Source: Octopus vulgaris
Taxonomy: Eukaryota
Length of the DNA: 64,000 nt
Assembly: GCA_951406725.2 (NCBI GenBank)
Contig: OX597842.1
Location: 22,072,001 to 22,136,000, forward strand
Direction of reading: 5' to 3'
Under the pieces are notes generated by a model. It did not search any database, was not told the DNA's origin, and saw nothing but the letters and a program-made list of their open reading frames with translations. The position numbers and the translations under genes were made by a program. Below, in pieces: positions 4,012 to 62,120 of this stretch (within the stretch, counting starts at the first letter, position 1; every line of letters starts with the position of its first letter).

Positions 4012-5629
4012 TCAGTGATTAAGCAGCTGACTATTTTGAGAAAATGATTTACCAGAGATATCACAATGATATGGTTTTTCTCCTGTATGAACACGCCTGT
4101 GCTTGGTTAAGGTATCGTTTCGAGAGAAAGATTTACCACAGATTTCACAGTGATATGGTTTTTCTCCTGTATGAACACGACTGTGCATGGTTAATTGATC
4201 GTTTCGAGAGAAAGATTTGTCACAGATTTCACAGTGATATGGTACTTCCCCTGTATGAACACGCCTGTGCTTGGTTAAGGTATCGTTTCGAGAGAAAGAT
4301 TTACCACAGATTTCACAGTGATATGGTTTTTCTCCTGTATGAACACGACTGTGCATGGTTAATTGATCGTTTCGAGAGAAAGATTTGTCACAGATTTCAC
4401 AGTGATATGGTACTTCCCCTGTATGAACACGCCTGTGCTTGGCTAAGGTATCCTTTCGAGAGAAAGATTTACCACAGACTTCACAGTGATATGGTTTTTC
4501 TCCTGTGTGAATGCATTTATGAATAGTCAAGTGATTGTTTTGAGAGAATGATATACCACAGATATCACAGTGATATGGTTTCTCTTCTGTGTGAACAGTA
4601 CGCTTGTGCATTGTTAAGGTACTAGTTTCAGAGAAAGATTTACCACAGATATCACACTGATATGGCTTTTCACCTGTGTGAATACGTATGTGTCTAGTTA
4701 AGTAACTTTTATCAAAGAATGATTTACCACAAATATCACAGTGACATCGTTTTTTCTCCTGTATGAACACGCTTGTGAATAGTTACTTTACTAATTTCAG
4801 AGTAGGATTTACCACAGATATCACAGTGATATGCCTTTTCTCCTGTATGAATGGATTTGTGCCTAGTTAAGTTAGAACTTTGAGAGAATGACTTATCACA
4901 GATATCACAGCGATATGGCTTCTCACCTGTATGAATGCGTTTGTGGGTAGTTAAATGACCATTTTCAGAGAAAGATTTACCACAGATTTCACAGTGATAT
5001 GGTTTTTCACCTGTATGAGTACGTTCGTGAATGACTAACTTAGCTTTCTGAGAGAACGACTTGCCACAGATATCACAATCAAATGCTGTTTTGCCCTTTT
5101 CGTTCTGTTCCTCATCAGAAAAATCAATTTCTTCAGACTCTCTTTTACATTCAACTTCATTCCTACGTAATTCATTTTCCATAATTTTCATTTCTCTCGT
5201 CACAGTACACAAAGGTTTTCCTTCTTCTCGTATATTACTCTTAACAAATGATTTACCAGAGATATCACAATGATATGGCTTCTCTCCTGTATGAACACAC
5301 CTGTGCTTGGTTAAGTTATCAATTTGAGAGAAACATTTACCACAGATTTCACAGTGATATGGTTTTTCACCTGTGTGAACACCACTCTTGTGCCTAGTTA
5401 AGTTTTCATTTCGAGAGAAAGATTTACCACAGATTTCACAGTGATATGGTTTTTCTCCTGTATGAGTATGTTCGTGAATGACTAACTTAGCTTTCTGAGA
5501 GAACGACTTGCCACAGATATCACAATCAAATGCTGTTTTGCTCTTTTCGTTCTGTTCTTCATCAGAAAAATCAATTTCTTCAGACTCTCTTTTACATTCA
5601 ACTTCACTCCGATATAATTCATTTTCCAT
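4012..5629 (-). CDS. Poly-C2H2 ZNF gene A (~15 fingers, two fused modules), with a +1 frameshift at ~4750
   Basis: ORFs 4736-5659 and 4012-4770 carry CxxC-x12-HxxxH fingers with TGEKPY linkers. First ATG is MENEL at 5629. An extra base lies in the T-run at 4750-4755 relative to paralog D (~40645). Confidence 0.85.
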
Positions 5630-5773
5630 AATTTTCCTTTCTCTCGTCACAGTACACAAAGGTTTTCCTTCTTCTCGTATATTGCTCTTAACAAATATTT
5701 CTACTGATATATCTCCATCAATAGTGATCTTTGTTAATATCTGAAGATGCTGTAAACTGCCTTCTTAATTGCT

Positions 5774-6154
5774 TTAACTCATTAACATTCAGATTACTCT
5801 GTCAAATAGAATGTTTATTGAAATTCTTCTGAATTAATTATTCATTATGTTATCATGTTCAGATTTCAATGTTGTGATTGTTTATTTTTAGAATGACATT
5901 GTAGGGTGGGGGTGAGGGGTGGGATCTGGCTAGTATGAATATAAAACACACAAAAATATGGCCAGTTTAACCGTTTAGCATTGAGATTCCTTTGTGAAAT
6001 GTAATGCTTATTTATTCATATTGTTTTGAATTAATCATGGATTATCTCATAGCTTTGAGACTTCAGTGATTTGATTGTTTATGTTTAAATTGACACTGCA
6101 GGGTGAGTGTGAGAGGTCAGAATATTTGTGCTAGTTTAAATGCTAAATGATTAA
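5774..6154. mobile_element. Two tandem decayed TTAA MITEs in the ZNF 5' leader (two in A/C/E, second truncated in B; one in G/D/F)
   Basis: TTAACCGTTTAGCATT...AATGCTAAATGATTAA terminal inverted repeats. The two halves are homologous. Confidence 0.6.
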
Positions 6155-6929
6155 TTAATATGCAAATATAATTTTCTGTGTATTCCAGACAATAAAGAAC
6201 AGAAATTTTGTTACATATATGTCAGAGTTCAGAAGATATATTTTGCAGTAATTCAGTAAATATTCATAGAAACAGGGTTATACGTGTTTTGTATAACATC
6301 TTTGCTCAGTCTTCAAAAGACTTTCCATTCTAATGACGTTGCTTATGTCAAAATCCTGTGAAGCAGATGTCATCTGATAATCTGAAACGAAAGAGAAACA
6401 ACAGTGTAAAACATACAAGATAATTAGGAATTAGAGAGATTAAAGCAGTGAAAGTTTTACTACATTTTTATATAGACATGGCTATAGAAGTGCAGGAATG
6501 GTTGTGTGGTAAGAAGTTGGCTTCCCAAACACATGGTCCTGGGTTCAGTCCCAGAGTGGCCAATTAAAGATATGTTTGATGGAAACTGAAAGAAGCTTGA
6601 CATGTAACAAATACCAAAATGAATTCTAATCGAAATAAGCAAAACAGAAATTTAAATACGAGGAACCATTTGATAAGTCACCTGATGAGACATGTCTGCA
6701 TCAAAGGATGCCCCACAACTGTTCGTACAGAATCTCACCTGCGAGGCACAGATGCACGATGGGTTGAAACAATCATAGTGAATACTAGTCTTGGAAATTC
6801 TATTTTCTTTCTCTTTCTCTCATGTTTTAAACTCTACTGACATGAAGGAATTCCTCAAATAAATCCAGTGTCATTTATATCCATACTGTAGATGACAATA
6901 GCTAGCCAAATATAGTGAGAAGGCTATCT

Positions 6930-7190
6930 AAAATAATTGATTTATCTGATGATGTAGAGAATGAAGAGGGCAAGACATCATATGATTGTGATACCTGTGG
7001 TAAATTATTCTCTCGGAAAACTAACTTACTCACTCACCGACGTATTCATACAGGAGAGAAGCCATATCATTGTGATACCTGTGGTAGATCATTCTCTGAA
7101 AATCAAGGCTTGTCTAGGCACAGACGCGTCCATACAGGTGAGAAGCCATATCACTGTGATATCTGTGGCAAATCGTTCGCTCAGAAAGGC
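6930..7190 (+). pseudogene. Inverted ZNF coding fragment (acidic leader plus ~2.5 fingers) in the intron of gene A
   Basis: Translates [23 protein letters not shown]...HTGEKPY on +. No ATG. Absent from the paralogous intron site at ~42525 and ~60895. Confidence 0.9.
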
Positions 7191-8224
7191 AATGATATAC
7201 TATAAGGTGTATATATAAATTTAAAATTATTACTTCATCATCATTTAAATTCCATTTTACAAGCTGGCATGGGTTGAATGGTTTGAAAGGAGCTAACCAG
7301 CTGAAGGGCTGTTCAGGCCCCATCTCTATCTTAAAATAATTTCTATTGCTGGATGCCCTTTCTAACACAAATCCTTTACAGAATGTACTGGGTGCTTTTT
7401 ACATGGTATCAGCACCCATGAGCCTGCAGGATTAGGGATGCTCAGCTGGAGGGGGTCGCAAGGGACAAGCTTGTATGCAAGGGCACCCATGCTTTTACTT
7501 AGCTTGATGTGTCTTTTCAAACACAGCAAACTGCCAGGACTCTCGTTTCCTGATCCCCGTCATATAATGTCCACCTTCAATACCAGTATCTGTTGGATGG
7601 TTTGGTAGGAGGTGGTCAGTCAGAAGACTGCCCCACACTTGTGTGTCTGTTTTGGCTCAGCTTCTACAGCTAGATGCTCTTCCTAACACCAACCATACTA
7701 CAGAGTGTATTGAGTACATTTTAAGTGGCAAGATCACAGGCAAGGTCAGTTTTGGCACAGCTTTTTACATTTAATGTCCATTTACCATGCTTCGCTGGGT
7801 TGGTTGGTTTGACCTGTGCTGGCAAACAGGGGTGCTGCACCCAGTTCCTGCCTGATTTCGATTGCTTTCTAAAGCTGGACACTCTTCTTAACGCCAACCA
7901 CTTTAGAGACTGTATCGAGAACTTCTCACATGGTCCTTAAATGGGAGCTTTTTATGCAGAGCAGTATAGATGCCGTTTACATAGATCACCATGATATATA
8001 TATATAAATATATACATACATATAATAATTATTTGAGGGAATATAAATCCAAACTCAAGACGAAAAAAATTCAATTTAGAAATACTGAATCAAATTTCAC
8101 AATATAATATATAATGGCGGTGCCCCAGCGTGGCCACAGCTCATAAGCTGAAACTAGAATCAATCAATCAATCATATATATAATAAATTTCAAGAAAATA
8201 ACACCTATACATATATATATATAT

Positions 8225-8505
8225 ATTAGAAAAAAAACTACCTTTTATCAATTCAAAAGGAACAATTAAATTACACCATCTAGAAAATTACATATAATAG
8301 AATTATTAAAATTAAAATAACAATAAAATATCCATCATTAAGTAAATTGCAAAAAAAATAAAAACTTATATAATTGGTAGAATAACGACACGTCATTGAT
8401 ATTTTATTGTTATTTTAATTTAAATATTTCTATTATATGTAATTTTCTAGATGGTGTAATTTAATTGTTCATTTTGAATTGATAAAAACTGGTGTTTTTT
8501 CTAAT
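8225..8505. repeat. AT-rich foldback with ~108-bp arms and ~65-bp spacer; paralogs at ~43473-43751 and 61825-gap
   Basis: 8225-8332 is the reverse complement of 8398-8505. Confidence 0.85.
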
Positions 8506-9510
8506 ATATATATATATATATATACACATATGTATATACGTATATATATATATAATATAAAATCTGTTCTGTCTGTGTGTCTTCTCGGATCTCGGGCATC
8601 CTCAATCTGATTGCAGCCAAATTTGATATGTAGATGCCGATGGTATCAGGACGTGTATAAGTCTTGAAAATATTACAAAAATCGATTCCAGGTGAGAATA
8701 CGATCGATAAAGCCATGGGAACGTGCTTTTGTATGCGCAAGTACATCAGCTGTTGTGATCGATACTACACGTACGCAAGAAAAATGCACATGCAGTTTGT
8801 GCCGGCTGGCATGAAATAATGCCACAAAATGCAGTATATCTAAGAGACCAAAAAAGTAAGATGCAACAGAGATATTTTCTTCAAACTTGGCATGAAGGAA
8901 GGAAAGACTATTTCGTTTCTCAAGAAGTTTTTTTTTCTTTGCCTTAACTTTGTTTAACAAAACCAAAAGTTTTATTGAAATATAGGCATGCTTAATTATT
9001 TTTTAATGAAAAGAACTGTTTAAACCATGTTTGTGTTCTCCCAGTCAACAGCCTTATAATTACTGGTACTTTAAACTCTTCGGTTGCATATTTTTGTGAA
9101 TAAAATCGTTTTTCTTTGGAATAGAAAATAAGTCTATCTTTATTTCTTCTTTTGCTGGTGTCCCTAATTTAGGTTAAATCAGTGTTTCTCAAAGGGGAGG
9201 CCTATGGAGCGGTCGGAGAAGTTGCCTTGAGAAAATTTGGTTTAAATGTTTGACAACTCATCACCGTCCTTGGACGGGGAGGAGGGGCATTTTGCAACTG
9301 TGTGTGTGTATGTATATATAATTATAATTCTGCTTCTTATTATTACTATCTTTTACTTATTTCTGTCATTAGACTGCCATCATGCTGGGGCATCGCCTTG
9401 AAGAATCTGTAGTGAGACTGGATCGACCCCAGAACTTATTTGTTTTTTATGCCTGGAACTCATTTCATCAGTCTAATATAAAAACAAAATGAAATTATTA
9501 CTTTACTCAC

Positions 9511-9625
9511 CATTTAATATCACTCCTTATCCTCCGTAGAGTCTTTCCCCCCAGCAGTTTTGATACAAAAGTAGAAATTCATCGAGAAAAGTCGATAATT
9601 TTAGACGAGATCAAAGAATATCTGA
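9511..9625 (-). other. Putative short non-coding upstream exon of gene A (intron 6382-9510)
   Basis: Minus-strand donor AAATG|GTGAGT at 9510. Conserved acceptor TTTCTCTTTCGTTTCAG| at 6382. The block recurs upstream of C, G, D and E. Confidence 0.6.
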
Positions 9626-9944
9626 CCCTAAAAAGAACCGTTACAAAAATTGCGTAAACGGGGAATATATAAAACATGTAATGGTTTGCTTGAAATACCG
9701 AAACGAATTCGTAGCATTGTACCAAATTTAACAGCAACTATTTACACCATGCAGTATTTCTTGTGGTTTTTTATGTTCTGATCTCAAATCCCGCCGATGT
9801 CAATTTTACCTTTCATTGCTTCGGAATCAAAATAAAAATCCATCAAAAAGAGAGGTTGATACTAATCTCCCCCACACCCCCAATATTAAGTGTATTAATA
9901 AGAACTTTGCTTCTAGCAGGTAACTGAGGTAACAATTATATCCT

Positions 9945-13475: not shown

Positions 13476-14582
13476 TTACTAGCAATATCGCCCGGCGTTG
13501 CTTGAGTTTGTTTCGACCCTTTAGAATTGGAATGTTTGAAAAGTAATAATTTTGCATTATGTAGCTTGTTATTCTCTTTAAGTGAAGATTCTTCTGGTTG
13601 AAATACACAGAAAAGTGGCAACACAGAAGTCAAAAATTCGTAAAAAAATAGGGATTTTCATAGTAAAAAAGCACCTTTTCGATGTAAATAATTTTTGGGG
13701 TTAACATGGGCCGATTTGAATTTTTTCTTCTACGTAAGGAAGAGCAAGCCTTTATCTATGATACTCTCAAACTTGATCAACTTGCACAGCAGGGTCTCTT
13801 AGGAGATGGGGTTAGTTGAAGGCTACAAAACCTGCCACACACACAGACAACTTCAGCTTTATATATATAGATATATCGTGCAATGCCACTCCCTGTAAGA
13901 AGCATTTGTGCCAGTTCATGTAAAAAGCACACATGCTGATCCATGTGGTTATTCAACTTACTCCTTCCACTGAAATTGCTGGCCTTGTGCCAAAATAATG
14001 TCAGATACAATAATGCCTTGATATATGAGTTAATTTCTTACTGGAGATTGCTCCTAAAGTGAAAACTCATAAAGCAAAGCAATAATTTCCCATAGAAGCA
14101 ATGTTATAAATTGTAATTCAATCCCAGAAAAATATTTTACCAATAAAATTTATAATACTTGTAAATAAATGACAATAAAACAACAGTAGAATGTAAAGAA
14201 TATTTTATGTAAAGTCAAAAACAATGTCAAGATTATTTAGAATAGACAAAATATTATTATTATAATTGTTTTCTGAATCACTTTGAAAAGACTCAGGGAC
14301 ACCATCATTTGTAGACATGACCACTGATTCACAAGCAAAGAAACAAGTCTAGAGTTGTTTACTGAGAAGCATTCCTTTGCTCTTTATAAACTTCTTGGTA
14401 AGACACAGATGCATTTGTTATGGTAGTAGAAACTTTCAAAATTTGGATGTTGTGCTTGAAAAATAAAACTCATAAACAATGTCTGTAACTGGGGAAATGA
14501 ATCTATTCCTCATGAAATGTGTTCTCTGTCTGTATGAACATGCTTGTGCTTGGTTAAGTGATCGTTTCGAGAGAAAGATTTA

Positions 14583-14774
<192 letters not shown>

Positions 14775-14937
14775 TCACACTTGAATGAACGTATTTGCGA
14801 ACAGTTAAGCTGGGTCCATCAGAGAATGACTTACCACAGACACCGCAATGATATGACTTCTCATCTGTGTGAATATGTATCTGATTAGTTAAGATTCTAT
14901 TTTCATAAAATAATTTACCACAGATATGACGTTGCTA

Positions 14938-16892
<1,955 letters not shown>

Positions 16893-17473
16893 AATTTTCC
16901 TTTCTCTCGTCACAGTACACAAAGGTTTTCCTTCTTCTCGTATATTGCTCTGAATAAATATTTCTACTGATATATCTCCATCAAAAGTGATCTTTGTTAA
17001 TATCTGAAGATGCTGCAAACTGCCTTCTTAATTGCTTTAACTCATTAACATTCAGATTACTCTGTCAAATAGAATGTTTATTGAAATTCTTCTGAATTAA
17101 TTATTCATTATGTTATCATGTTCAGATTTCAATGTTGTGATTGCTTATTTTTAGAATGACCTTGTAGGGTGGGTGTGAGGGGTGGGATCTGGCTAGTATG
17201 AATATAAAACACACAAAAATATGGCCAGTTTAACCGTTTAGCATTGAGATTCCTTTGTGAAATGTAATGCTTATTTATTCATATTGTTTTGAATTAATCA
17301 TGGATTATCTCCATTCTAATGACGTTGCTTATGTAAAAATCCTGTGAAGCAGATGTCATCTGATAATCTGAAACGAAAGAGAAACAACAGTGTAAAACAT
17401 ACAAGATAATTAGGAATTAGAGAGTCATGCGCCTTCAAATATATATGAGAAGTAACATAATAACTTCATATAA

Positions 17474-17507
<34 letters not shown>

Positions 17508-20500
17508 GTACATGACACTGCTGTCCCTCGTCCCAGGGTCTCTGATGCCCACACCTCCCAAACCCTCAGAGTTGGCACGCTCAACGTTGGCACATTGAAA
17601 GGTAGGTCTGGAGAGATTGTAGAGCTGCTTGAACGGAGACGTGTGGATGTATGCTGTATCCAGGAAGTAAGGTGGAGAGGAGGTTCTGCTAGGCTCCTCA
17701 CGGGCAAGGAACACAGGTACAAGATTTTCTGGGCAGGGAACATTGACGGTGTCGGGGGCGTGGGTATACTTCTTGCGGAGAAATGGATAGGTAAGGTAAT
17801 CGAGGTAGTCAGAATAAGTGACAGAGTAATTAAAATTAGATTAGTTCTTCACCATAGGACAGCTACCATCATCTCGGCATATGCCCCTCAACCAGGGCTA
17901 CCGGAAGGACAAAAAGACCAATTCTATGACACCCTATTGCGGACTACCTCATTGACAAATGACAGTGACCTTCTCTTCGTGGCAGGTGATTTCAATGGAC
18001 ATGTTGGACGACATGTCAGGGGCTTCCATGGCATCCATGGAGGCCACGGTTTTGGCTCTCGAAATGAGGAGGGAACCAGGCTGCTGGAGTTCTGCGATGC
18101 AAATGACCTTATGGTCTGCAATACCCACTTCAGGAAACCCACCTCTCACCTAGTCACCTACCGTTCTGGCAGACACACCAGCCAGATTGACTACATCCTT
18201 GCCAGAAAAAGGGAAAGAGGGCTGATTATAAATGCCAAAACCTTCCCAGGCGAAGAATGTACTCCCCAACATAGATTAGTAGTTAGCGACTTCAGGATCA
18301 GAGCTAAATGGTCGCCCAGAAGAAGACCAGCTTGGAGGAGAAGGGTCTGGAAGCTTAAAGATCCTGCAAATGCACAGAGATTTAGAGACATACTACTCGA
18401 AGCCTCTGACGAAATAGAAGGGGATATAGCTTCACTTAATGTGGAAGACAACTGGAGATTCCTACGGGACAATCTGCTGACAGCCACTGACCAGATCTGT
18501 GGATGGAGCAAAGTACCATCTCGACCCAGAGTAACATGGTGGTGGAACACGGTGGTTGACGGGGCTATTAGACAAAAGAGACAGGCTTGGAAGGACTGGA
18601 AGAACGGTGGTAGCAGGGAATTGTATCAGACAGCCAAAAGGGAAGCTAGGAGACAGGTTTATATAGCCAGAGGGGAAGCGGATAAGAGAAAATTTGCCAA
18701 TGTTCTGAGCCGTGAGGATGAAAGACTTGAGGTATTTCGTGTTGCAAGACAGTGTGTGAGAGAGAATCGTGATGTGGTAGGAGAGAAGTGTGTTCGCATG
18801 GATGATGGTTCACTTGCGCTAAATGAGGATGCAAAGAGAGAGGTTTGGAGATGCCACTATGAAAGTTTGCTGAATAAAGAAAATGAATGGGATAAAGAGA
18901 GTCTGCCAAATGTTGACCCAACAGAGGGACCAGCTATCCGAGTTGATAGTTCCGTGGTAGCTAAGGCAATTAGAAGCATGAAGACAGGGAAAGCCCCAGG
19001 CCCATCAGGAATTACTGCAGAGATGCTCAAAATATCTGGCAGTGTCGGCTATAACCTAGTCACCCGTATAGTCAACCAGGTGATACACGAAGGAGTCATA
19101 CCCAATGACTGGTGTAGCAGCATACTAGTCAACTGCTACAAAGGTAAAGGTGATGCCCTGGATACAAATAATTACAGAGGTATCAAGCTGTTGGATCAGG
19201 TAATGAAGGTTACGGAGAGGGTCTTAGCCCAACTAATTAGAGAGAGAGTTAGTTTAGATGAGATGCAGTTTGGGTTTGTCCCAGGGAAAAGCACCACTGA
19301 TGCTATATTCCTGGTAAGGCAGCTGCAGGAGAAATACCTAGCCAAGGATAAGCCCCTGTACCTGGCTTTTGTTGACATGGAGAAAGCCTTTGATAGGGTC
19401 CCCCGATCCCTCATCTGGTGGTCAATGAGGAAACTAGGGATAGATGAATGGCTGGTGAGGGCTGTGCAAGCCATGTACAGAGATGCCGTAAGTAAGGTTA
19501 GAGTTGGCAACATGTACACAGAAGAATTCAAAGTAGAGGTTGGGGTCCACCAGGGTTCAGTACTCAGCCCCCTCCTATTTATCATAGTCCTCCAGGCAAT
19601 AACGGAGGAATTCAAGACAGGTTGCCCCTGGGAGCTCCTCTATGCTGACGACCTCGCTCTAATCGCTGAGTCACTATCAGAACTGGAGGAGAAGTTCCAG
19701 GTGTGGAAGGAGGGTTTAGAATCGAGGGGCCTTAGAGTCAACCTAGCTAAAACCAAAGTACTAATAAGTAGAAAGGTAGAAAACCCACAAATATCATCAG
19801 GAAGATGGCCCTGCTCGATCTGTAGAAAAGGTGTAGGTAGAAACTCTATAAGATGTACCCAGTGTAAGCTATGGACACATAAGAGGTGCAGCAATGTCAA
19901 AGGTAGGCTAACTGGGAAGATAGTTTTTGTATGTGGCAGGTGCTCTGGAGCACTGACCTCCGAAAATCTGCAGAAAACAACTTCTGTCACTTTCCGGGGG
20001 AAAAACTAGAAGTAGTTGATAGTTTCCGCTATCTAGGTGACCAAGTCAGTAGTGGGGGTGGGTGCGCTGAAAGTGTAACTGCTAGAATAAGAATAGCCTG
20101 GGCAAAGTTTAGGGAGCTCTTACCTCTGCTGGTGACTAAAGGCCTCTCGCTCAGAGTAAAAGGCAGACTGTATGATGCATGTGTACGAACAGCTATGCTA
20201 CATGGCAGTGAAACATGGGCCGTGACTGCTGAGGACATGCGTAAGCTCGTGAGGAACGAAGCCAGTATGCTCCGATGGATGTGTAATGTCAGTGTACTTA
20301 CTCGACAGAGCGTTAGTACCTTGAGAGAAATGTTGTACCTAAGAAGCATCAGTTGTTGTGTGCAAGAGAGACGATTGCGCTGGTATGGTCATGTGGCGAG
20401 AATGGATGAAGAGAGGTGTGTGAGAAAGTGCCAATCCCTAGCAGTTGAGGGAACCCGTGGAAGAGGTAGACCCAGGAAAACCTGGGACGAGGTGGTGAAG

Positions 20501-38838: not shown

Positions 38839-41415
38839 TCATGAAATGTGTTCTCTGTCTGTATGAACATGCCTGTGCATGGTTAAGTGATCGTTTCGAG
38901 AGAAAGACTTACCACAGATTTCACAGTGATATGGCTTTTCTCCTGTATGAACATGCTTGTGCTTGGTTAAGGTATCGATTCGAGAGAAAGACTTACCACA
39001 GATTTCACAGTGATATGGTTTTTCTCCTGTATGAACATGCTTGTGCTTGGTTAAGTGATCGTTTAGAGAAAAGGATTTACCACAGATTTCACAGTGATAT
39101 GGTTTTTCTCCTGTATGAACATGCTTGTGCTTGGTTAAGGTATCGTTTCGAGAGAAAGACTTACCACAGATTTCACAGTGATACGGTTTTTCTCCTGTAT
39201 GAACACGCCTGTGCATAGTTAAGTGATCGTTTTGAGAAAAGGATTTACCACAGATTTCACAGTGATATGGTCCCTCTCCTGTATGAAGATGCTTGTGCTT
39301 GGTTAAGGTACCGTTTTGAGGGAAAGATTTACCACAGATTTCACAGTGATATGGTTTTTCTCCTGTATGAACACGCCTGTGCATAGTTAAGGTATCGTTT
39401 TGAGAAAAAGATTTACCACAGATTTCACAGTGATATGGTTTTTCTCCTGTATGAACACGCTTGTGCTTGGTTAAGTGATCGTTTAGAGAAAAGGATTTAC
39501 CACAGATTTCACAGTGATATGGTTTTTCTCCTGTATGAACATGCTTGTGCTTGGATAAGGTATCGTTTCGAGAGAAAGATTTACCACAGATTTCACATTG
39601 ATTTGGTTTTTCTCCTGTATGAACACGCCTATGCATAGTTAAGTGATCGTTTTGAGAAAAAGATTTGTCACAGATATCACAGTGATATGGTGCTTCTCCA
39701 GTGTGAACACCACTCTTGTGCCTAGTTAAGTTTTCGTTTCGAGAGAAAGACTTACCACAGATATCACAGTGATATGGTTTTTCTCCTGTATGAGTACGTT
39801 CGTGAATGACTAACTTAGCTTTCTGAGAGAACGACTTGCCACAGATATCACAATCATATGATGTTTTGCCCTTTTCATTCTTCTCCTCATCAGAAAAATC
39901 AATCTCTTCAGACTCTCTTATACATTCAACTTCACTCCTACGTAATTCATTTTCCATAATTTTCCTTTCGCTCCTCACAGTACACAAAGGTTTTCCTTCT
40001 TCTCGTATATTACTCTTAACAAATGATTTACCAGAGATATCACAATGATATGGCTTCTCTCCCATATGAACATGCCTGTGCTTGGTTAAGTTATCATTTA
40101 GAGAGAAAGATTTACAACAGATTTCACAGTGATATGGTTTTTCTCCTGTATGAACATGCTTGTGCCTGGTTAAGCAATTTTTTCGAGAGAAAGATTTACC
40201 ACAGATTTCACAGTGATATGGTTTTTCTCCTGTATGAACACGCTTGTGCATGGTTAAGTGATCGTTTCGAGAGAAAGATTTGTCACAGATTTCACAGTGA
40301 TATGGTTTTTCTCCCATATGAACACGCCTGTGCATGGTTAAGTGATTGTTTCGAGAAAAGGATTTACCACAGACTTCACAGTGATATGGTTTCTCTCCTG
40401 TGTGAATGCATTTATGAATAGTCAAGTGATCGTTTTGAGAGAATGATATACCACAGATATCACAGTGATATGGTTTCTCTCCTGTGTGAACAGTACGCTT
40501 GTGCATTGTTAAGGTACTAGTTTCAGAGAAAGATTTACCACAGATATCACACTGATATGGCTTTTCACCTGTGTGAATACGTATGTGTCTAGTTAAGTGA
40601 CTTTTATCAAAGAAGGATTTACCACAGATATCACATTGACATGGTTTTTCTCCTGTATGAACACGCTTGTGAATAGTTACTTTACTAATTTCACAGAAGG
40701 ATTTACCACAGATATCACAGTGATATGGTTTTTCTCCTGTATGAATGTATTTGTGCCTAGTTAAGTTATACCTTTGAGAGAATGATTTATCACAGATTTC
40801 ACAGCGATATGGCTTCTCTCCTGTATGAATGCGTTTGTGAATAGTTAAATGATGAATATCAAGAAATGATTTACTACAAACGTCACAGTGATATGGTTTT
40901 CCTCCTGTATGAATACGTTGGTGAGTGACTAAGCTACCTTTCTGAGATAATATTTTACCACAGATATCACAGTGATATGGTTTTTCTCCTGTATGAATAC
41001 GCTTGTGCTTGGTTAAGGTATCATTTCGAGAGAAAGATTTACCACAGATTTCACAGTGATATGGTTTTTCTCCTGTATGAATACGCCTGTGCATAGTTAA
41101 GTGATCGTTTTGAGAAAAAGATTTGTCACAGATATCACAGTGATATGGTGCTTCTCCTGTGTGAACACCACTCTTGTGCCTAGTTAAGTTTTCGTTTCGA
41201 GAGAAAGATTTACCACAGATTTCACAGTGATATGGTTTTTCTCCTGTATGAGTACGTTCGTGAATGACTAACTTAGCTTTCCGAGAGAACGACTTGCCAC
41301 AGATATCACAATCAAATGCTGTTTTGCCCTTTTCATTCTTTTCCTCATCAGAAAAATCAATTTCTTCAGACTCTCTTTTACATTCAACTTCACTCCGATA
41401 TAATTCATTTTCCAT
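38839..41415 (-). CDS. Poly-C2H2 ZNF gene D (~27 fingers, two fused modules)
   Basis: Uninterrupted 900-aa ORF with ATG at MENEL (41415). The acidic leader recurs internally at ~39860-40020. Ends HTDREHIS*. Confidence 0.92.
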
Positions 41416-43432
41416 AATTTTCCTTTCCCTCGTCACAGTACACAAAGGTTTTCCTTCTTCTCGTATATTGCTCTGAACAAATATTTCTACTGATATATCT
41501 CCATCAATAGTGATCTTTGTTAATATCTGAAGATGCTGCAAACTGCCTTCTTAATTACTTCTCATTAACACGCAGATTACTCTGTCGAATGTAATGATTA
41601 TTTATTCAAATTCTTCTGAATTAATCATTCATTATCTTATTGCTTTAAGATTTCAACGATGTGATTCTTTATGTTTATATGACATTGCCAGGTGAGTATA
41701 AGAGGCCAGATGTGGGCAGTTTTAACATAAAATAGCTTGAACGTTTGGGACTGATACGGCCAGTACAAATGCTAAAGGATTAATTCAAATACAAATATAA
41801 TTTTCTGTGTACTCCAGACAATAAAGAAGAGAAATTTCATAACATATGTCAGTTCAGAAGATATATTTTGCAGTAATTCAGTAAATATTTATAGAAACAG
41901 GGTTATACGTGTTTTGTATAACATCTTTGCTCAGTCTTCAAAAGACTTTCCATTCTAATGACGTTGCTTATATAAAACTCTTGTGAAGCAGATGTCATCT
42001 GATAATCTGAAACGAAAGAGAAACAACAGTGTAAAACATACAAGATAATTCGGAATTAGAGAGATTAAAACAGTGAGAGTTTTACTACATTTTTATATAG
42101 ACATGGCTATAGAAGTGCAGGGATGGTTGTGTGGTAAGATGTTGGCTTCCCAACCACATGGTCCTGGGTTCGGTCCCAGAGTGGCCAAACAAAGCCTTGT
42201 GAGAGGATGTGGTAGATGGGAACTGAAAAATGCTTGACAAATTCGAACTACCCGAAAGAATTCTAATCCAAAAAAGGAAAACAGAAATTAAATTATGTGG
42301 TACCTTTTGACAAGTCACCTGACAAAGCACACCTGACAAGACACCTGCAAGGCAATGATGCATGATGGGTTGAAATGATCACAGAGTATCATAGACTTGT
42401 AAATTCTATTTCCTTTCCTTTCATTGTTTAAACTCTATGGACATGAAGGAATTCCTACAGTAAATCCATTGTCATTTAAATCCATATTGTTGATGACATC
42501 AGATAGCCAAATACAGTGAGCAGGCTTTAAATGACATACTGCAATGTCTATATACAAATTTAAAATTATTACTTCATCATCATTTAAATTCCATTTTACA
42601 CACTGGCATGGGTTGAATGGTTTGAAAGGAGCTAACCAGCTGAAGGGCTGATCAGGCCCCATCTCTATCTTAAAATAGTTTCTATTGCTGAATGCCCTTT
42701 CTAACACAAACCCTTTACACAATGTACTGGGTGTTTTTTTACGTGGTATCAGCACCCATGAGCCTGCAAGATTAGGGATGTTCAGCTGGAGGGGGTTGCA
42801 AGGGACAAGCTTGTATGCAAGGGCAACCATGCTTTTACTTAGCTTGATGTGTCTTTTCAAACACAGCAAACTGCCAGGATTCTCGTTTCCTGATCCCCTT
42901 CATTTAATGTCCACCTTCAATACCAGTATCTGTTGGATGGTTTGGTAGGAAGTGGTCAGTCAGAAGACTGCCCCAGACTTGTGTGTCTGTTTTGGCTCAG
43001 CTTTTAAGCTGGATGCTCTTCCTAACACCAACCATACTACAGAGTGTATTGACTACATTTTAAGTGGCAAGATCACAGGCAAGGTCAGTTTTGGCACAGC
43101 TTTTTACATTTAATGTCCATTTACCATGCTTCCCTGGGTTGGTTGGTTTGACCTGGGCTGGCAAACAGGGGTGCTGCCCCCAGTTCCTGCCTGATTTAGA
43201 TTGCTTTCTACAGCTGGACACTCTTCTTAACGCCAACCACTTTAGAGACTGTGTTGAGATCTTCTCACATGGTACATGTATGGGTGTCTTTTATGCAAAG
43301 CAGTATAGATGCCCCTTATACAGATCACCATGATATATATATATACATACATATAAAAATTATTTGAGGGAATATAAATCCAAACTCACAAGGAAAAAAA
43401 TTCAATTTAGAAATACTAAATCAAATTTCACA

Positions 43433-46503: not shown

Positions 46504-47367
46504 TCTCCCTCTTTGTTTCTCTCTCATTTTCCCACTCTCTTACATTTCTTTTCTCTTGACTCTCCCTCGCTTTCTCTTACTCTCTATCTATCTCTCTCCC
46601 ATTTATAAACAACAAAAGATCTTGAGTAAGTTGAGAAATAAAATATTTAGAAAGATCAATCATAAATCTCAGGCAGTGGCAACGGAAAGGTCTGCTTCAA
46701 GGCAGACAGCAAAACACTAACATTTAAAAGGGACAGACGAACTTGCGAGCTGAATAAAAATAATAAAATATTGGAAACCAAAGTTTGAAGGGATAGAATC
46801 TGAGGATAGTAGAGTCACCATGGCTGGCATTTCTTAACGACGGACAGCAACATATTGACAGTTTAAAGGCTGGCGTAAAATTTTGGACTTGATGCAAAAG
46901 AAGATTGGTAAACACCAATTTTTTAAGTGATTCTTTCTCATGACAGTAGACTCACCATGGCAAGCATTCAAAACTTCTTCATCGTGGACGGCAACACATT
47001 GACGATTAAAAGGCTGGCACAAATTTTTTAGCTTGATGTAACAGAGAATTCCTAAACACCCGCTCCTTTAAATTTTAATCCCTTTCAGCCCCATTTAGAC
47101 CCCTTTTCACATTTTGGTTAATATAACCTGATTTCATTCGGGTCTACTGGGGCCACATTTTATAAGATGAGAAATTTTGTCCTAGAGGTCACGCCTTTCA
47201 TTTGAGGAAAAGAATATTTGTCATGCAAACTTGCCAGCACTTTTAACATAGGTGTGCATATTTTCAGCTCAACCGACCGACCACATAATGCACACATTAT
47301 ATATATATATATATATGTATATATATGTGTGTGTGCATGCATTATATATACAAATTATATATATATA

Positions 47368-49831
47368 AGGCTTGGAAGGACTGGAAGAACGGTGGTAGCA
47401 GGGAAGTGTATCAGACTGCCAGAAGGGAAGCTAGGAGGCAGGTGTATTTAGCCAGAGGGGAAGCAGATAAGAAAAAATTTGCCAATGTCCTGCGCCGGGA
47501 GTATGAAAGACTTGAGGTATTTCGTGTTGCAAGACAGTGTGTGAGAGAGAATCGTGACGTGGTAGGAGAGAAATGCGTTCGCAAGGATGACGGTTCACTT
47601 GCGCTAAATGGGGATGCAAAGAGAGAGGTTTGGAGACGCCACTATGAAAGATTGCTGAATGAGGAAAATGAATGGGATAAAGAGAGTCTGCCGAATGTCG
47701 ACCCAACAGAGGGACTAGCAATCCGAGTTGACAGTTCCTTAGTAGTTTTGGCAATTACAAGCATGAGAACAGAGAAAGCCCCAGGCCCATCAGGTATTAC
47801 TGCAGAGATGCTCAAAATATCTGGTAGTGTCGGCTATAGCCTACTCACCTGTATAGTTAACCAGGTGATACACGAAGGAGTCATACCCAATGACTGGTGT
47901 AGCAGCATACTAGTCAACTACTACAAAGGTAAAGGTGACGCCCTAGATACAAATAACTACAAGGGTATCAAGCTGCTGGATCAGGTAATGAAGGTTACGG
48001 AGAGGGTTATAGCCCAACTAATTAGAGAGAGAATTAGCTTAGATGAGATGCAGTTTGGGTTTGTGCCAGGGAGAAGTACTACTGATGCTATATTCTTGGT
48101 AAGACAGCTGCAGGAGAAATACCTAGCCAAAGATAAGCCCCTGTACCTGGCTTTTGTTGACATGGAGAAAGCCTTTGACAGGGTCCCCCGATCCCTTATC
48201 TGGTGGTCAATGAGGAAAGTAGGGATAGATGAATGGTTAGTTAGAGCTGTACAGAGACGCTGCTAGTAAGGTAAGGGTTGGCAACGAGTACAGTGAAGAA
48301 TTCCGGGTAGAGGTTGGGGTCCACCAAGGTTCAGTCCTCAGTCCCCTCCTATTTATCATAGTCCTCCAGGCAATAAAGGAGGAATTCAAGACAGGATACC
48401 CCTGGGAGCTCCTCTATGCTGATGACCTTGCTCTAATTGCTGAGTCACTATCAGAACTGGAGGAGAAGTTTCAGGTGTGGAAGCAAGGTCTAGAATCAAA
48501 GGGCCTCAGAATCAATCTAGCCAAAACCAAAGTCCTAATAAGTAGGAAAGTAGACAAGTCACAAACGCCTTCAGGTAGATGGCCCTGCTCGATCTGTAAA
48601 AAAGGTGTAGGTAGAAACTCTATAAGGTGCACCAAGTGCAAGCTATGGACACATAAGAGGTGTAGCAATGTCAAAGGAAGGCTAACTAGGTAAATAGTTT
48701 TTGTCTGTGGCAGATGCTCAGGAGCAATAAACACTGAAAATGTGCAGAGACCAAGGTCTACCTAGTTCCAGGGAGAAAAACTAGAAGTAGTTGATAGCTT
48801 CCGCTACCTAAGTGACCAAGTCAGTAGCGGGGGTGGGTGTGCTGAAAGTGTAACTGCTAGAGTAAGAATAGCCTGGGCAAAGTTTAGAGAGCTCTTACCC
48901 CTGCTGGTGACAAAAGGCCTCTCGCTCAGAGTTAAAGGCAGACTGTATGATGCATGTGTATGTACAGCCATGCTACATGGTAGTGAAACATGGGCTGTGA
49001 CTGCTGAGGATATGCGTAAGCTCGCAAGAAATGAAGCCAGTATGCTCCGATGGATGTGTAATGTCAGTGTTCATAATCGACAGAGTGTAAGTACCTTGAG
49101 AGAAAAGTTGGACCTAAGAAGCATCAGTTGTGGTGTGCAAGAGAGATGTCTGCGCTGGTATGGGCATGTGACGAGTATGGGTGAAGATAGTTGTGTGCAA
49201 ATGTGCCACACTCTAGCATTTGAGGGAACCTGTGGAAGAGGTAGACCCAGGAAAACCTGGGACGAGGTGGTGAAGCACAACCTTTGAACTTTAGGTCTCA
49301 CCAAGGAAATGTCTAGAGACCGAGACCTATGGAAGTATGCTGTGCATGAGAAGACCCGGCAAGACCAGTGAGGACAGTCAAAATCAAACCAAATTAACAT
49401 CAGTGGAAATTGCAGCTGTGGTTAAGCGAACCATCCAATCGTTTGTCCATTGCCAGCCTCACCTGGCCCCCATGCCGTTGGCACGTAAAAGCACCATCCG
49501 CTCGTGTCCGTTGCCAGCTTCGCCTGGACCCCTGCACGTAAAAGCACCATCCGTTCGTGTCCGTTGCCAGCCTCGCTGGGCCCCCGTGCCGGTGGCACGT
49601 AAAAACACCATCCGTTCGTGGTCGTTTGCCAGCTCTGTCTGGCACCTGTGCAGGTGGCACGTAAAAAGCACCCACAACACTCACGGAGTGGTTGGCGTCA
49701 GGAAGGGCATCCAGCCGTAGAAACACTGCCAAATCTGACTGGGCCTGATGAAGCCTTCCGGCTTCACAGGCCCCAGTTAAACCGTCCAACCCATGCTAGC
49801 ATGGAAAACGGACGCTAAATGATGATGATGA
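47368..49831 (+). mobile_element. 5'-truncated, decayed RTE LINE
   Basis: Fragmented ORFs homologous to 18585-20593, with stops and frameshifts and a (GAT)n tail. Confidence 0.92.
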
Positions 49832-53054: not shown

Positions 53055-54352
53055 AATGTTCCTTTCTCTTGTCACAGTTCACAAAGGTTTTCCTTCTTCT
53101 CGTATATTGCTCTGAACAAATATTTCTACTGATATATCTCCATGAAAAGTGATCTTTGTTAATATCTGAAGATGCTGCAAACTGCCTTCTTAATTGCTTT
53201 AACTCATTAACATTCAGATTAATCAGTCAAATAGAATGTTTATTGAAATTCTTCTGAATTAATCATTCATTATGTTATCATGTTCAGATTTCAATGTTGT
53301 GATTGTTTATTTTTAGAATGACCTTGTAGGGTGGGTGTGAGGGGTGGGATCTGGCTAGTATGAATATAAAACACACAAAAATATGGCCAGTTTAACCGTT
53401 TAGCATTGAGATTCCTTTGTGAAATGTAATGCTTATTTATTCATATTGTTTTGAATTAATCATGGATTATCTCATAGCTTTGAGACTTCAGTGATTTGAT
53501 TGTTTATGTTTAAATTGACACTGCAGGGTGAGTGTGAGAGGTCAGAATATTTGTGCTAGTTTAAATGCTAAATGATTAATTAATATGCAAATATAATTTT
53601 CTGTGTATTCCAGACAATAAAGAAGAGAAATTTTGTTACATATATGTCAGAGTTCAGAAGATATATTTTGCAGTAATTCAGTAAATATTCATAGAAACAG
53701 GGTTATACGTGTTTTGTATAACATCTTTGCTCAGTCTTCAATAGACTTTCCATTCTAATGACGTTGCTTATGTCAAAATCCTGTGAAGCAGATGTCATCT
53801 GATAATCTGAAACGAAAGAGAAACAACAGTGTAAAACATACAAGATAATTAGGAATTAGAGGGATTAAAGCAGTGAAAGTTTTACTACATTTTTATATAG
53901 ACATGGCTGTAGAAGTGCAGGGATGGTCGTGTGGTAAGAAGTTGGCTTCCCAACCACATGGTCCTGGGTTCAGTCCCAGAGTGGCCAATCAAAGACATGT
54001 TTGATGGAAACTGAAAGAAGCTTGACTTGTCCCAAATACCAAAATGAATTCTAATCGAAATAAGCAAAACAGAAATTTAAATACGAGGAACCATTTGATA
54101 AGTCACCTGATGAGACATGTCTGCATCAAAGGATGCCCCACAACTGTTCGTACAGAATCTCACCTGCGAGGCACAGATGCACGATGGGTTGAAACAATCA
54201 TAGTGAATACTAGTCTTGGAAATTCTATTTTCTTTCTCTTTCTCTCATTTTAAACTCTACTGACATGAAGGAATTCCTCAAGTAAATCCAGTATCATTTA
54301 TATCCATACTGTAGATGACATCAGATAGCCAAATACAGTGGGAAGGCTATCT

Positions 54353-54613
54353 AAAATAATTGATTTATCTGATGATGTAGAGAATGAAGAGGGCAAAACA
54401 TCATATGATTGTGATACCTGTGGTAAATTATTCTCTCGGAAAACTAACTTACTCACTCACCGACGTATTCATATAGGAGAGAAGCCATATCATTGTGATA
54501 CCTGTGGTAGATCATTCTCTCGAAATCAAGGCTTGACTAGGCACAGACGCGTCCATACAGGTGAGAAGCCATATCACTGTGATATCTGTGGCAAATCGTT
54601 CACTCAGAAAGGC
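54353..54613 (+). pseudogene. Inverted ZNF coding fragment in the intron of gene E
   Basis: Near-identical to 6930-7190, at the same insertion point. Confidence 0.9.
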
Positions 54614-59844: not shown

Positions 59845-61784
59845 ATCAAATATTTCTACTGATATATCTCCATCAAAAGTGATCTTTGTTAATATCTGAA
59901 GATGCTGCAAACTGCCTTCTTAATTACTTCTCATTAACACGCAGATTACTCTGTCGAATGTAATGATTATTTATTCAAATTCTTCTGAATTAATCATTCA
60001 TTATCTTATTGCTTTAAGATTTCAACGATGTGATTCTTTATGTTTATATGACATTGCCAGGTGAGTATAAGAGGCCAGATGTGGGCAGTTTTAACATAAA
60101 ATAGCTTGAACGTTTGGGACTGATACGGCCAGTACAAATGCTAAAGGATTAATTCAAATACAAATATAATTTTCTGTGTACTCCAGACAATAAAGAAGAG
60201 AAATTTCATAACATATGTCAGTTCAGAAGATATATTTTGCAGTAATTCAGTAAATATTTATAGAAACAGGGTTATATGTGTTTTGTATAATATCTTTGCT
60301 CAGTCTTCAAAAGACTTTCCATTCTAATGACGTTGCTTATATAAAACTCTTGTGAAGCAGATGTCATCTGATAATCTGAAATGAAAGAGAAACAACAGTG
60401 TAAAACATACAAGATAATTCGGAATTAGAGAGATTAAAACAGTGAGAGTTTTACTACATTTTTATATAGACATGGCTATAGAAGTGCAGGGATGGTTGTG
60501 TGGTAAGATGTTGGCTTCCCAACCACATGGTCCTGGGTTCAGTCCCAGAGTGGCCAAACAAAGCCTTGTGAGAGGATGTGGTAGATGGGAACTGAAAAAT
60601 GCTTGACACATTCGAACTACCCGAAAGAATTCTAATCCAAAAAAGGAAAACAGAAATTAAATTATGTGGTACCTTTTGACAAGTCACCTGACAAAGCACA
60701 CCTGACAAGACACACCTGCAAGGCAATGATGCATGATGGGTTGAAATGATCACAGAGTATCATAGACTTGTAAATTCTATTTCCTTTCCTTTCATTGTTT
60801 AAACTCTATGGACATGAAGGAATTCCTACAGTAAATCCATTGTCATTTAAATCCATATTGTTGATGACATCAGATAGCCAAATACAGTGAGCAGGCTTTA
60901 AATGGCATACTGCAATGTCTATATACAAATTTAAAATTATTACTTCATCATCATTTAAATTCCATTTTAGACACTGGCATGGGTTGAATGGTTTGAAAGG
61001 AGCTAACCAGCTGAAGGGTTGATCAGGCCCCATTTCTATCTTAAAATAGTTTCTATTGCTGGATGCCCTTTCTAACACAAACCCTTTACACAATGTACTG
61101 GGTGTTTTTTTACGTGGTATCAGCACCCATGAGCCTGCAAGATTAGGGATGTTCAGCTGGAGGGGGTTGCAAGGGCAACCATGCTTTTACTTAGCTTGAT
61201 GTGTCTTTTCAAACACAGCAAGCTGCCAGGATTCTCGTTCCCTGATCCCCTTCATTTAATGTCCACCTTCAATACCAGTATCTGTTGGATGGTTTGGTAG
61301 GAAGTGGTCAGTCAGAAGACTGCCCCAGACTTGTGTGTCTGTTTTGGCTCAGCTTTTCAGCTGGATGCTCTTCCTAACACCAACCATACTACAGAGTGTA
61401 TTGAGTACATTTTAAGTGGCAAGATCACAGGCAAGGTCAGTTTTGGCACAGCTTTTTACATTTAATGTCCATTTACCATGCTTCCCTGGGTTGGTTGGTT
61501 TGACCTGTGCTGGCAAACAGGGGTGCTGCCCCCAGTTCCTGCTTGATTTAGATTGCTTTCTACAGCTGGACACTCTTCTTAACGCCAACCACTTCAGAGA
61601 CTGTGTTGAGATCTTCTCACATGGTATATGTATGGGTGTCTTTTATGCAAAGCAGTATAGATGCCCCTTATACAGATCACCATGATATATATATATACAT
61701 ACATATAAAAATTATTTGAGGGAATATAAATCCAAACTCACAAGGAAAAAAATTCAATTTAGAAATACTAAATCAAATTTCACA

Positions 61785-62020: not shown

Positions 62021-62120
62021 NNNNNNNNNNNNNNNNNNNNNNNNNNNNNNNNNNNNNNNNNNNNNNNNNNNNNNNNNNNNNNNNNNNNNNNNNNNNNNNN
62101 NNNNNNNNNNNNNNNNNNNN
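62021..62120. other. Assembly gap (100 N)
   Basis: The N run falls inside the foldback of the gene F intron. Confidence 1.

Follow-up and report, generated by a model that had tools for sequence, protein, structure and literature searches.

An inverted zinc-finger fragment in intron 1 of octopus C2H2 genes, probably a neutral passenger of gene duplication

The window, that is the whole 64,000-nt stretch of DNA that was analyzed, corresponds to C29:22072001-22136000 and is part of a 2.8-Gb genome. It hosts seven tandem C2H2 zinc-finger (ZNF) arrays, all lying on the minus strand and here labelled genes A to G, and only two pairs of fingers lie on the plus strand (6987-7133 and 54410-54556). 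Gene A is composed of a predicted short first exon, a GT-AG intron and a second exon that bears the ZNF frame (Table 1). This frame likely starts at ATG 5629 and encodes a duplicated leader and 8 fingers, followed by a frameshift near 4750. As transcript evidence we used contigs assembled from 4 of 24 runs (X1, X5, X12 and X15), three of them guessed to be RNA and one of DNA size, with a resolution at the level of the gene family. Probable-RNA contigs tile most of 5563-6382, within the leader of exon 2. A second short intron considered near 5760-6280 is unsupported, most of that region being tiled by contigs.

Table 1. Coordinates of the fragment, its empty sites, its host gene and its predicted pairing partners in the window
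Feature	Position	Strand	Basis or remark
Inserted ZNF fragment, 262 bp	6928..7189	+ (antisense to gene A)	Alignment against empty sites; open frame 6906-7205
Second copy of the insertion, gene E intron	54351..54612	+	97.7% identical
Empty site, gene D intron	42528..42529	.	Pairwise alignment
Empty site, gene F intron	60899..60900	.	Pairwise alignment
Predicted short first exon, gene A	9511..9700	-	ATG-ending before donor; paralogous in other units; 5' end not fixed
Intron 1 of gene A	6382..9510	-	GT-AG: GTGAGT at 9510, TTTCAG at 6382; X1 contig stops at 6382
Exon 2 of gene A	4736..6381	-	Leader of ~750 nt, then ZNF frame; open frames and contig tiling
Pairing register 1	5325..5584	-	78.5% identity with a 3-nt gap; predicted duplex -279 kcal/mol
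Pairing register 2 (best)	4881..5137	-	Ungapped over 257 nt, 79.8% identity; ~210 expected pairs
A of CAG (Gln, finger position -1), register 1	5496	-	Alignment; outside MFE pairing
A of CAG (Gln, finger position -1), register 2	5049	-	Predicted A:C mismatch; CpG codon, inferred ancestral

Several other features of these units are worth recording. The break in the gene A frame is caused by one extra homopolymer base near 4750 (within 4736-4782), which is missing from one X1 contig (depth 37 of 111) and may reflect a paralog-derived contig or an assembly error. The long 5' leader of gene A (5630-6381) contains 15 upstream ATGs and is highly alike among the paralogs that bear the insertion described below (mean difference 0.019-0.025); the ATG of exon 1 would start a short upstream frame of ~35 codons. 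The acidic leader and the first finger are duplicated inside the coding frame of gene A (4736-5764) and gene D (38839-41550), and the same in-frame duplication occurs at C29:22047k, 21881k and 19073k, which points to leader modules having undergone unequal crossing-over. Gene B (14500-17000) is pseudogene-like: in-frame stops interrupt its array, and its intron has suffered a large deletion (17311). Two plus-strand stretches between the ZNF genes, a long non-ZNF open frame of 841 amino acids (17484-20009) and a broken series of non-ZNF open frames (47289-49720), are probably transposon-derived. A run of 100 N upstream of the intron homology of gene F (62021-62120) may be an assembly gap or a withheld stretch. 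A block of ~20 kb hosting genes C, D and E is found in near-identical form at C29:22016000-22036000 and 22106000-22126000, ~90 kb apart; the two versions share 100% identity over 431 nt around the empty site, and represent a duplication that is either very recent or an artefact of the assembly. On C27, related ZNF genes are arranged in close divergent pairs (22753000-22768000 and 23482000-23491000), and their first finger is of another type (GYRY).

Intron 1 of gene A hosts, 546 nt from its 3' splice site, a piece of ZNF coding DNA composed of the acidic leader, finger 1, finger 2 and half of finger 3 (2.5 C2H2 fingers), with an intact frame on the plus strand. The preliminary description had reported an antisense ZNF piece of ~260 bp in this intron, and empty sites in the paralogous introns of genes D and F. 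Alignment bears out both points: the piece is a clean insertion of 262 bp in a GT-AG intron, and genes D and F lack it. Because the outgroup paralogs on C27, C23, C11 and at C29:23.9 Mb align straight across the empty site, the filled state is derived, and the difference reflects an insertion rather than a loss in genes D and F. Junction alignments show neither a target-site duplication nor a poly(A) tail at the ends of the fragment. At its right end the fragment reads Lys-Gly and runs into AAT, where a donor finger would continue AAT/AAC, and the letters at this junction suggest a possible microhomology of 2-3 nt (1-3 nt overall).

Overall, we identified 21 copies of the insertion in four regions of C29, with an identical intron position throughout, and two sequence patterns specific to the fragment match only these known copies (19 and 20 matches). 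In the C29 DNA examined, the 21 filled units compare with 8 empty ones; this excess could count against a neutral fragment, but the regions had been chosen around filled matches. The left flanks of the filled introns form a single clade (support 96/97, stem 0.049, median end branch 0.0067) in a tree whose bootstrap was not fully converged and from which two C27 units were left out. The fragment is inverted relative to the adjoining array in 20 of the 21 copies. The exception is a rearranged and decayed unit (C29:21890600-21892700), in which the fragment is co-oriented with the adjacent array, carries two stop codons and has lost finger 2. Two copies (C29:19464903-19465067 and 21890826-21890996) lack approximately one finger, as is expected from recombination or slippage between 84-nt units. 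We found no independent second inverted small ZNF piece in 576 kb of clusters, which were also chosen around filled matches.

No donor of the fragment was found among the candidates scored. By DNA search of the same genome, the best match outside the copies reaches 88% identity over 200 nt (best 40 of 1,909 candidates scored), and by protein search the best reaches 65-68% (best 150 of 10,857 scored). At the level of single fingers, the nearest ones in the 576 kb are 10, 8 and 2 differences away. A search of the protein database was swamped by unrelated long ZNF proteins. The frame of the fragment consensus is intact, though no donor above 88% identity was found, a point that counts against neutrality.

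The preliminary description proposed that the fragment could fold back on its host exon and guide RNA editing, and gave an ungapped alignment with gene A of ~80% identity over 160 nt. This identity was reproduced (80.0% in register 1 and 80.6% in register 2). In the unspliced pre-mRNA, register 2 yields a predicted duplex of 257 nt with 205 Watson-Crick pairs, 14 G:U pairs and 38 mismatches, including paired runs of 39 and 18 bases. Its predicted energy is -299 kcal/mol, compared with -279 kcal/mol for register 1, -219 kcal/mol for the inner fingers and -59 kcal/mol for a UTR control. When the minus-strand pre-mRNA is folded, 213 of the 262 fragment bases are predicted to pair with register 2 in the MFE structure (~210 by partition function). 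There A5049 lies opposite a C, as the preliminary description anticipated, and A5496 is unpaired with the fragment. Along the gene A array the fragment has 28 inverted alignments, and in the MFE structure of gene E it is divided among several registers. The gene A fragment obtains similar pairing scores with filled hosts (147.2) and with empty ones (145.6). Register 2 contains 13 A:C mismatches, 8 of them non-synonymous if edited, including Gln>Arg at position -1 (5049) and His>Arg at position +3 (4956); mismatch calls in register 1 were used only up to its 3-nt gap. The stable fold-back is thus upheld as a prediction (-299 versus -59 kcal/mol), whereas the functional claim built on it is not supported, the fragment showing no constraint on its sequence.

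We examined the mismatches between gene and fragment for a signature of editing. An excess of ~9:3 of positions with A in the gene and G in the fragment over the reverse had been reported. Our recount over 160 nt does not reproduce it, returning 8:5 among 32 differences in register 1 and 6:5 among 31 in register 2, with 13:8 over the 257 nt (P-value = 0.58, 1.0 and 0.38, respectively, binomial test). No asymmetry is detectable against 42 unique gene segments composed of leader and finger 1 (137 nt; mean 5.1 versus 5.3). In 620 gene-gene pairs the standard deviation is 2.5 and the probability of an excess of 3 or more is 0.17. A:C enrichment as an editing signature was therefore rejected, being within chance. 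Along the full length, the excess is consistent among hosts (~13:7, in copies that are non-independent) because of one G-rich finger: finger 2 of the fragment lies at the 99th percentile for this excess among 656 unique finger units, and finger 1 at the 67th.

A similar conclusion applies to the codon that had been singled out. As described before, two CAG codons, with their A at 5496 and 5049, face CGG in the fragment, and genes D, E and F encode CGG. Among the 21 filled hosts, the -1 codon of the first finger is CGG in 7, CAG in 6, TGG in 6 and unread in 2; among the 8 empty hosts it is CGG in 5, TGG in 2 and CAG in 1. An editable CAG is therefore present in only 6 of the 21 hosts with the fragment, and 13 of the 19 readable ones have nothing to edit at this position. 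CAG and TGG are both deamination products of a CGG CpG, and CGG was probably the ancestral state; one copy of the fragment has itself changed to CGA. Since this CpG codon varies between Gln, Arg and Trp regardless of the fragment, the mismatch requires no explanation by editing. Editing of the -1 codon may still occur, as restorative editing of such sites is described as common in coleoids (PMC8382921).

Transcript evidence was gathered from the acceptor side of intron 1, exon 1 being left out of the contig alignment. One X1 contig (depth 113) aligns over 6260-6382 and continues with 139 unaligned upstream letters, which fits splicing at 6382, and another crosses the acceptor unspliced at depth 12. 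Contigs also span both junctions between intron and fragment. Together with the GT-AG intron, they indicate that fragment and target exon share one transcription unit, in runs that are only guessed to be RNA. No majority-level T>C inside the fragment is listed in the contigs of the three probable RNA runs. The X5 contig over 6903-7059 differs at a single site, which lies outside the fragment and corresponds to a paralog allele. The X1 contig over 6870-7059 has 5 differences, equal to the family-consensus count, of which the 3 listed are all paralog alleles. Across 6927-7059, with 39 candidate positions, the contigs match genomic alleles and display no majority-level editing. This is a weak negative, because contigs, here from unspecified tissues, drop heterogeneous edited reads. 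In the exon, T>C at 5049 is present in X5 and X12, and not in X1 or X15. Since it is inseparable from CGG paralogs (15 leader-adjacent gene fingers carry CGG in the genome), it is uninformative on editing. No T>C at 5496 is found among the differences listed. The counts of T>C and A>G (9:9, 12:8 and 10:4 in the probable RNA runs, 7:10 in a run of DNA size) are no evidence of editing, as every T>C listed in 5560-7600 is a paralog allele.

If the fragment were retained as an editing guide, it might be expected to be more conserved than its surroundings and to change in ways that preserve pairing. It contains 48 polymorphic sites out of 262, compared with 159 out of 957 in the flanking intron (P-value = 0.52, odds ratio 1.13, interval 0.79-1.61; P-value = 0.92 without CpG), and 50 variants compared with the 46.6 expected at flank rates. 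Its mean pairwise difference (0.038) falls within the range of the intron flanks (0.023-0.043). The synonymous share of its variants is neutral (17 out of 50, 0.257 expected, P-value = 0.19; singletons 8 out of 32, P-value = 1.0). There are 3 stop alleles, and stops, frameshifts or deletions leave 6 of the 21 copies disabled as coding sequence or partly missing. Paired non-CpG positions vary like the flanks (27 out of 201 and 150 out of 941, respectively, P-value = 0.45), and wobble-preserving changes show no excess (8 versus 11.1 expected). The proposal that the fragment is maintained as an editing guide thus failed both tests, which compare paralogs only and have limited power.

Some weak signals point in the other direction. 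Variability is higher at mismatched than at paired positions, both with respect to gene A (15 out of 52 and 32 out of 205, respectively, P-value = 0.043; 0.35 without CpG) and to the host majority (14 out of 45 and 33 out of 212, respectively, P-value = 0.020; 0.09 without CpG). Of 15 variants at mismatched positions, 7 move to the host base. However, G>A and C>T, which are also the most frequent changes in the flanks, make up 5 of these 7, so that the drift would be accounted for by a bias in mutation or by exons converting the fragment now and then. We measured covariation with the own host in 19 of the 21 copies, after dropping the two with a deleted finger. The copies match their own host slightly better than other hosts, by ~0.4 nt (P-value = 0.067, 0.015 and 0.039 in three versions of the test; median 0.017 with one copy per cluster, and 0.15 when gene A and its sister are removed). 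In 5 copies a CG>GA double change restores a motif of the paired finger of gene A, but this motif is absent from 2 of the 5 hosts. Copies recombine, with 1,170 of 3,321 informative site pairs failing the four-gamete test. As the copies recombine and are only 3-4% different, and as a duplex tolerates many changes, the data would be compatible with weak constraint.

The ECS of GluA2 is an intronic element that pairs with the exon at the Q/R site. Like such intronic editing-complementary sequences (GluA2 Q/R; Drosophila Syt1), the fragment is predicted to pair, as part of an intron, with an exon of the unspliced transcript and to leave an A:C mismatch where the codon is Gln/Arg. That it is a functional ECS, retained for directing ADAR recoding of the DNA-contact codons of the host fingers, would be in line with the predicted duplex of ~210 pairs, the potentially recoding A:C mismatches of register 2, the slight own-host covariation, the drift toward host bases and the heavy recoding described in coleoids (PMC9068888). 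However, known ECSs are described as site-selective and recognized by their conservation, with coleoid sites lying in conserved surroundings (PMC5705066), whereas the duplex of the fragment is 257 nt long, unconstrained and upstream of its target, the codon is genomically variable and editing is only hypothetical. Only 6 of the 21 hosts offer an editable key site, the A:C bias is not significant, and the contigs match genomic alleles. In addition, the fragment lies in an upstream intron, and intron removal is described as limiting the availability of an ECS (PMC5991522). We consider a retained guide unlikely. In being a recent, lineage-specific inverted repeat of ~260-300 nt with ~80% identity within 1-2 kb, the fragment is closer to Alu-type ADAR substrates and editing inducer elements, which can recruit ADAR without conservation and whose primate targets are described as enriched in ZNF genes (PMC4053975). 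Unlike those, one arm is here a coding exon and its partner was derived from a paralogous exon rather than from a transposon, and any editing is hypothetical. At most, the fragment would act like an inverted-repeat ADAR substrate of this type.

The long predicted fold-back, with its runs of 39 and 18 paired bases, could also be a source of hairpin RNA, cut by Dicer into endo-siRNAs that would lower the expression of the entire ZNF cluster in trans. The fragment is 70-80% similar to fingers throughout the cluster, and it resembles the Drosophila hairpin RNAs and pseudogene-derived endo-siRNAs, which silence young paralog families, in that it is inverted, derives from a gene and is homologous to a family that is young and expanding (PMC10317233, PMC10292708). 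Unlike the Drosophila loci, it is no separate non-coding locus, has no sign of selection, and is known from DNA and a predicted fold. The fold-back exists only in unspliced RNA and carries 38 mismatches in 257 nt. The intronic form is ~10 times shallower than the spliced one in X1 (15 and 7 versus 113, contig depth being a poor measure of expression), and the word 'siRNA' is absent from the main text of the octopus small-RNA paper (PMC9699675), all of which makes this origin of small RNAs quite improbable. We give even less credit to a retro-copy of an ADAR-edited ZNF mRNA whose G-for-A differences would be fossil edits. The extreme A/G excess of finger 2 is what it predicts, but finger 1 has no such excess, and each such G is also present in genomic fingers (1-45%). 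The nearest fingers, used as relatives in place of the true donor, differ by only 1-3 A>G out of 8-9 changes, adenine is undepleted (49 of 137 versus 48-52), and the ends lack the marks of retroposition. The least probable of all is that the fragment serves as an exon in an antisense transcript of the plus strand, or encodes a micro-protein. The 99-codon stop-free frame is open in many copies and is followed just downstream by a possible AAG/GTGTAT donor, but the synonymous fraction is neutral, stops and frameshifts occur, and contigs pass from the intron into the fragment without any joint on either side.

The repair of double-strand breaks can leave templated insertions, and tandem arrays can carry pseudogene fragments as passengers. 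The fragment resembles both in being a short copy of a related sequence, with no target-site duplication or poly(A), little homology at the junctions and spread by duplication; it is unlike them in that the searches did not reveal its exact donor, and locally the best match is the 88% one reported above. Since the fragment changes as fast as the intron around it, we regard a chance insertion that was duplicated together with the genes as likelier than a selected editing guide. Its state is derived with respect to the empty site, it has one origin, and it decays at a neutral rate with disabling changes. It is therefore probably a neutral passenger of gene duplication, maybe edited incidentally. 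Zinc-finger exon DNA would have inserted once, in inverted orientation, into intron 1 of one ancestral gene. The absence of target-site duplication and poly(A), and the possible junction microhomology of 1-3 nt, suggest that a DNA break was repaired with a related ZNF exon as template, and that this exon has since disappeared or been overwritten. The fragment would then have spread through tandem and segmental duplication with recombination. While the intron remains unspliced, it is predicted to form the duplex of ~257 nt with the host exon. Given its position in an upstream intron and the reported effect of intron removal (PMC5991522), pairing would compete with splicing. Long duplexes are generally edited promiscuously rather than selectively. 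Any ADAR editing here would likewise be promiscuous, low-level and unselected, for which repeat-directed editing provides a comparison (PMC9068888).

No paper describing this insertion was found in the literature searched, which comprised main texts. A neutral fragment would be an ordinary insertion, useful for tracing lineages within the cluster. It also provides a natural experiment, in which 21 near-identical genes bear a long duplex between exon and intron and 8 or more lack it, in a group of animals that edits heavily. The comparison of filled and empty genes could address whether an upstream intronic inverted repeat is enough for recoding, and how new editing sites are born. There is a small chance that the fragment is a newborn, still unconserved ECS derived from the family's own exon. 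In that case 21 genes would share a fold-back guide sliding along 84-nt registers, ADAR would measurably recode DNA-contact residues, and paralogs would differ heritably in editability. Were such recoding of finger contact residues true, it would tie RNA editing to the expansion of C2H2 genes in coleoids.
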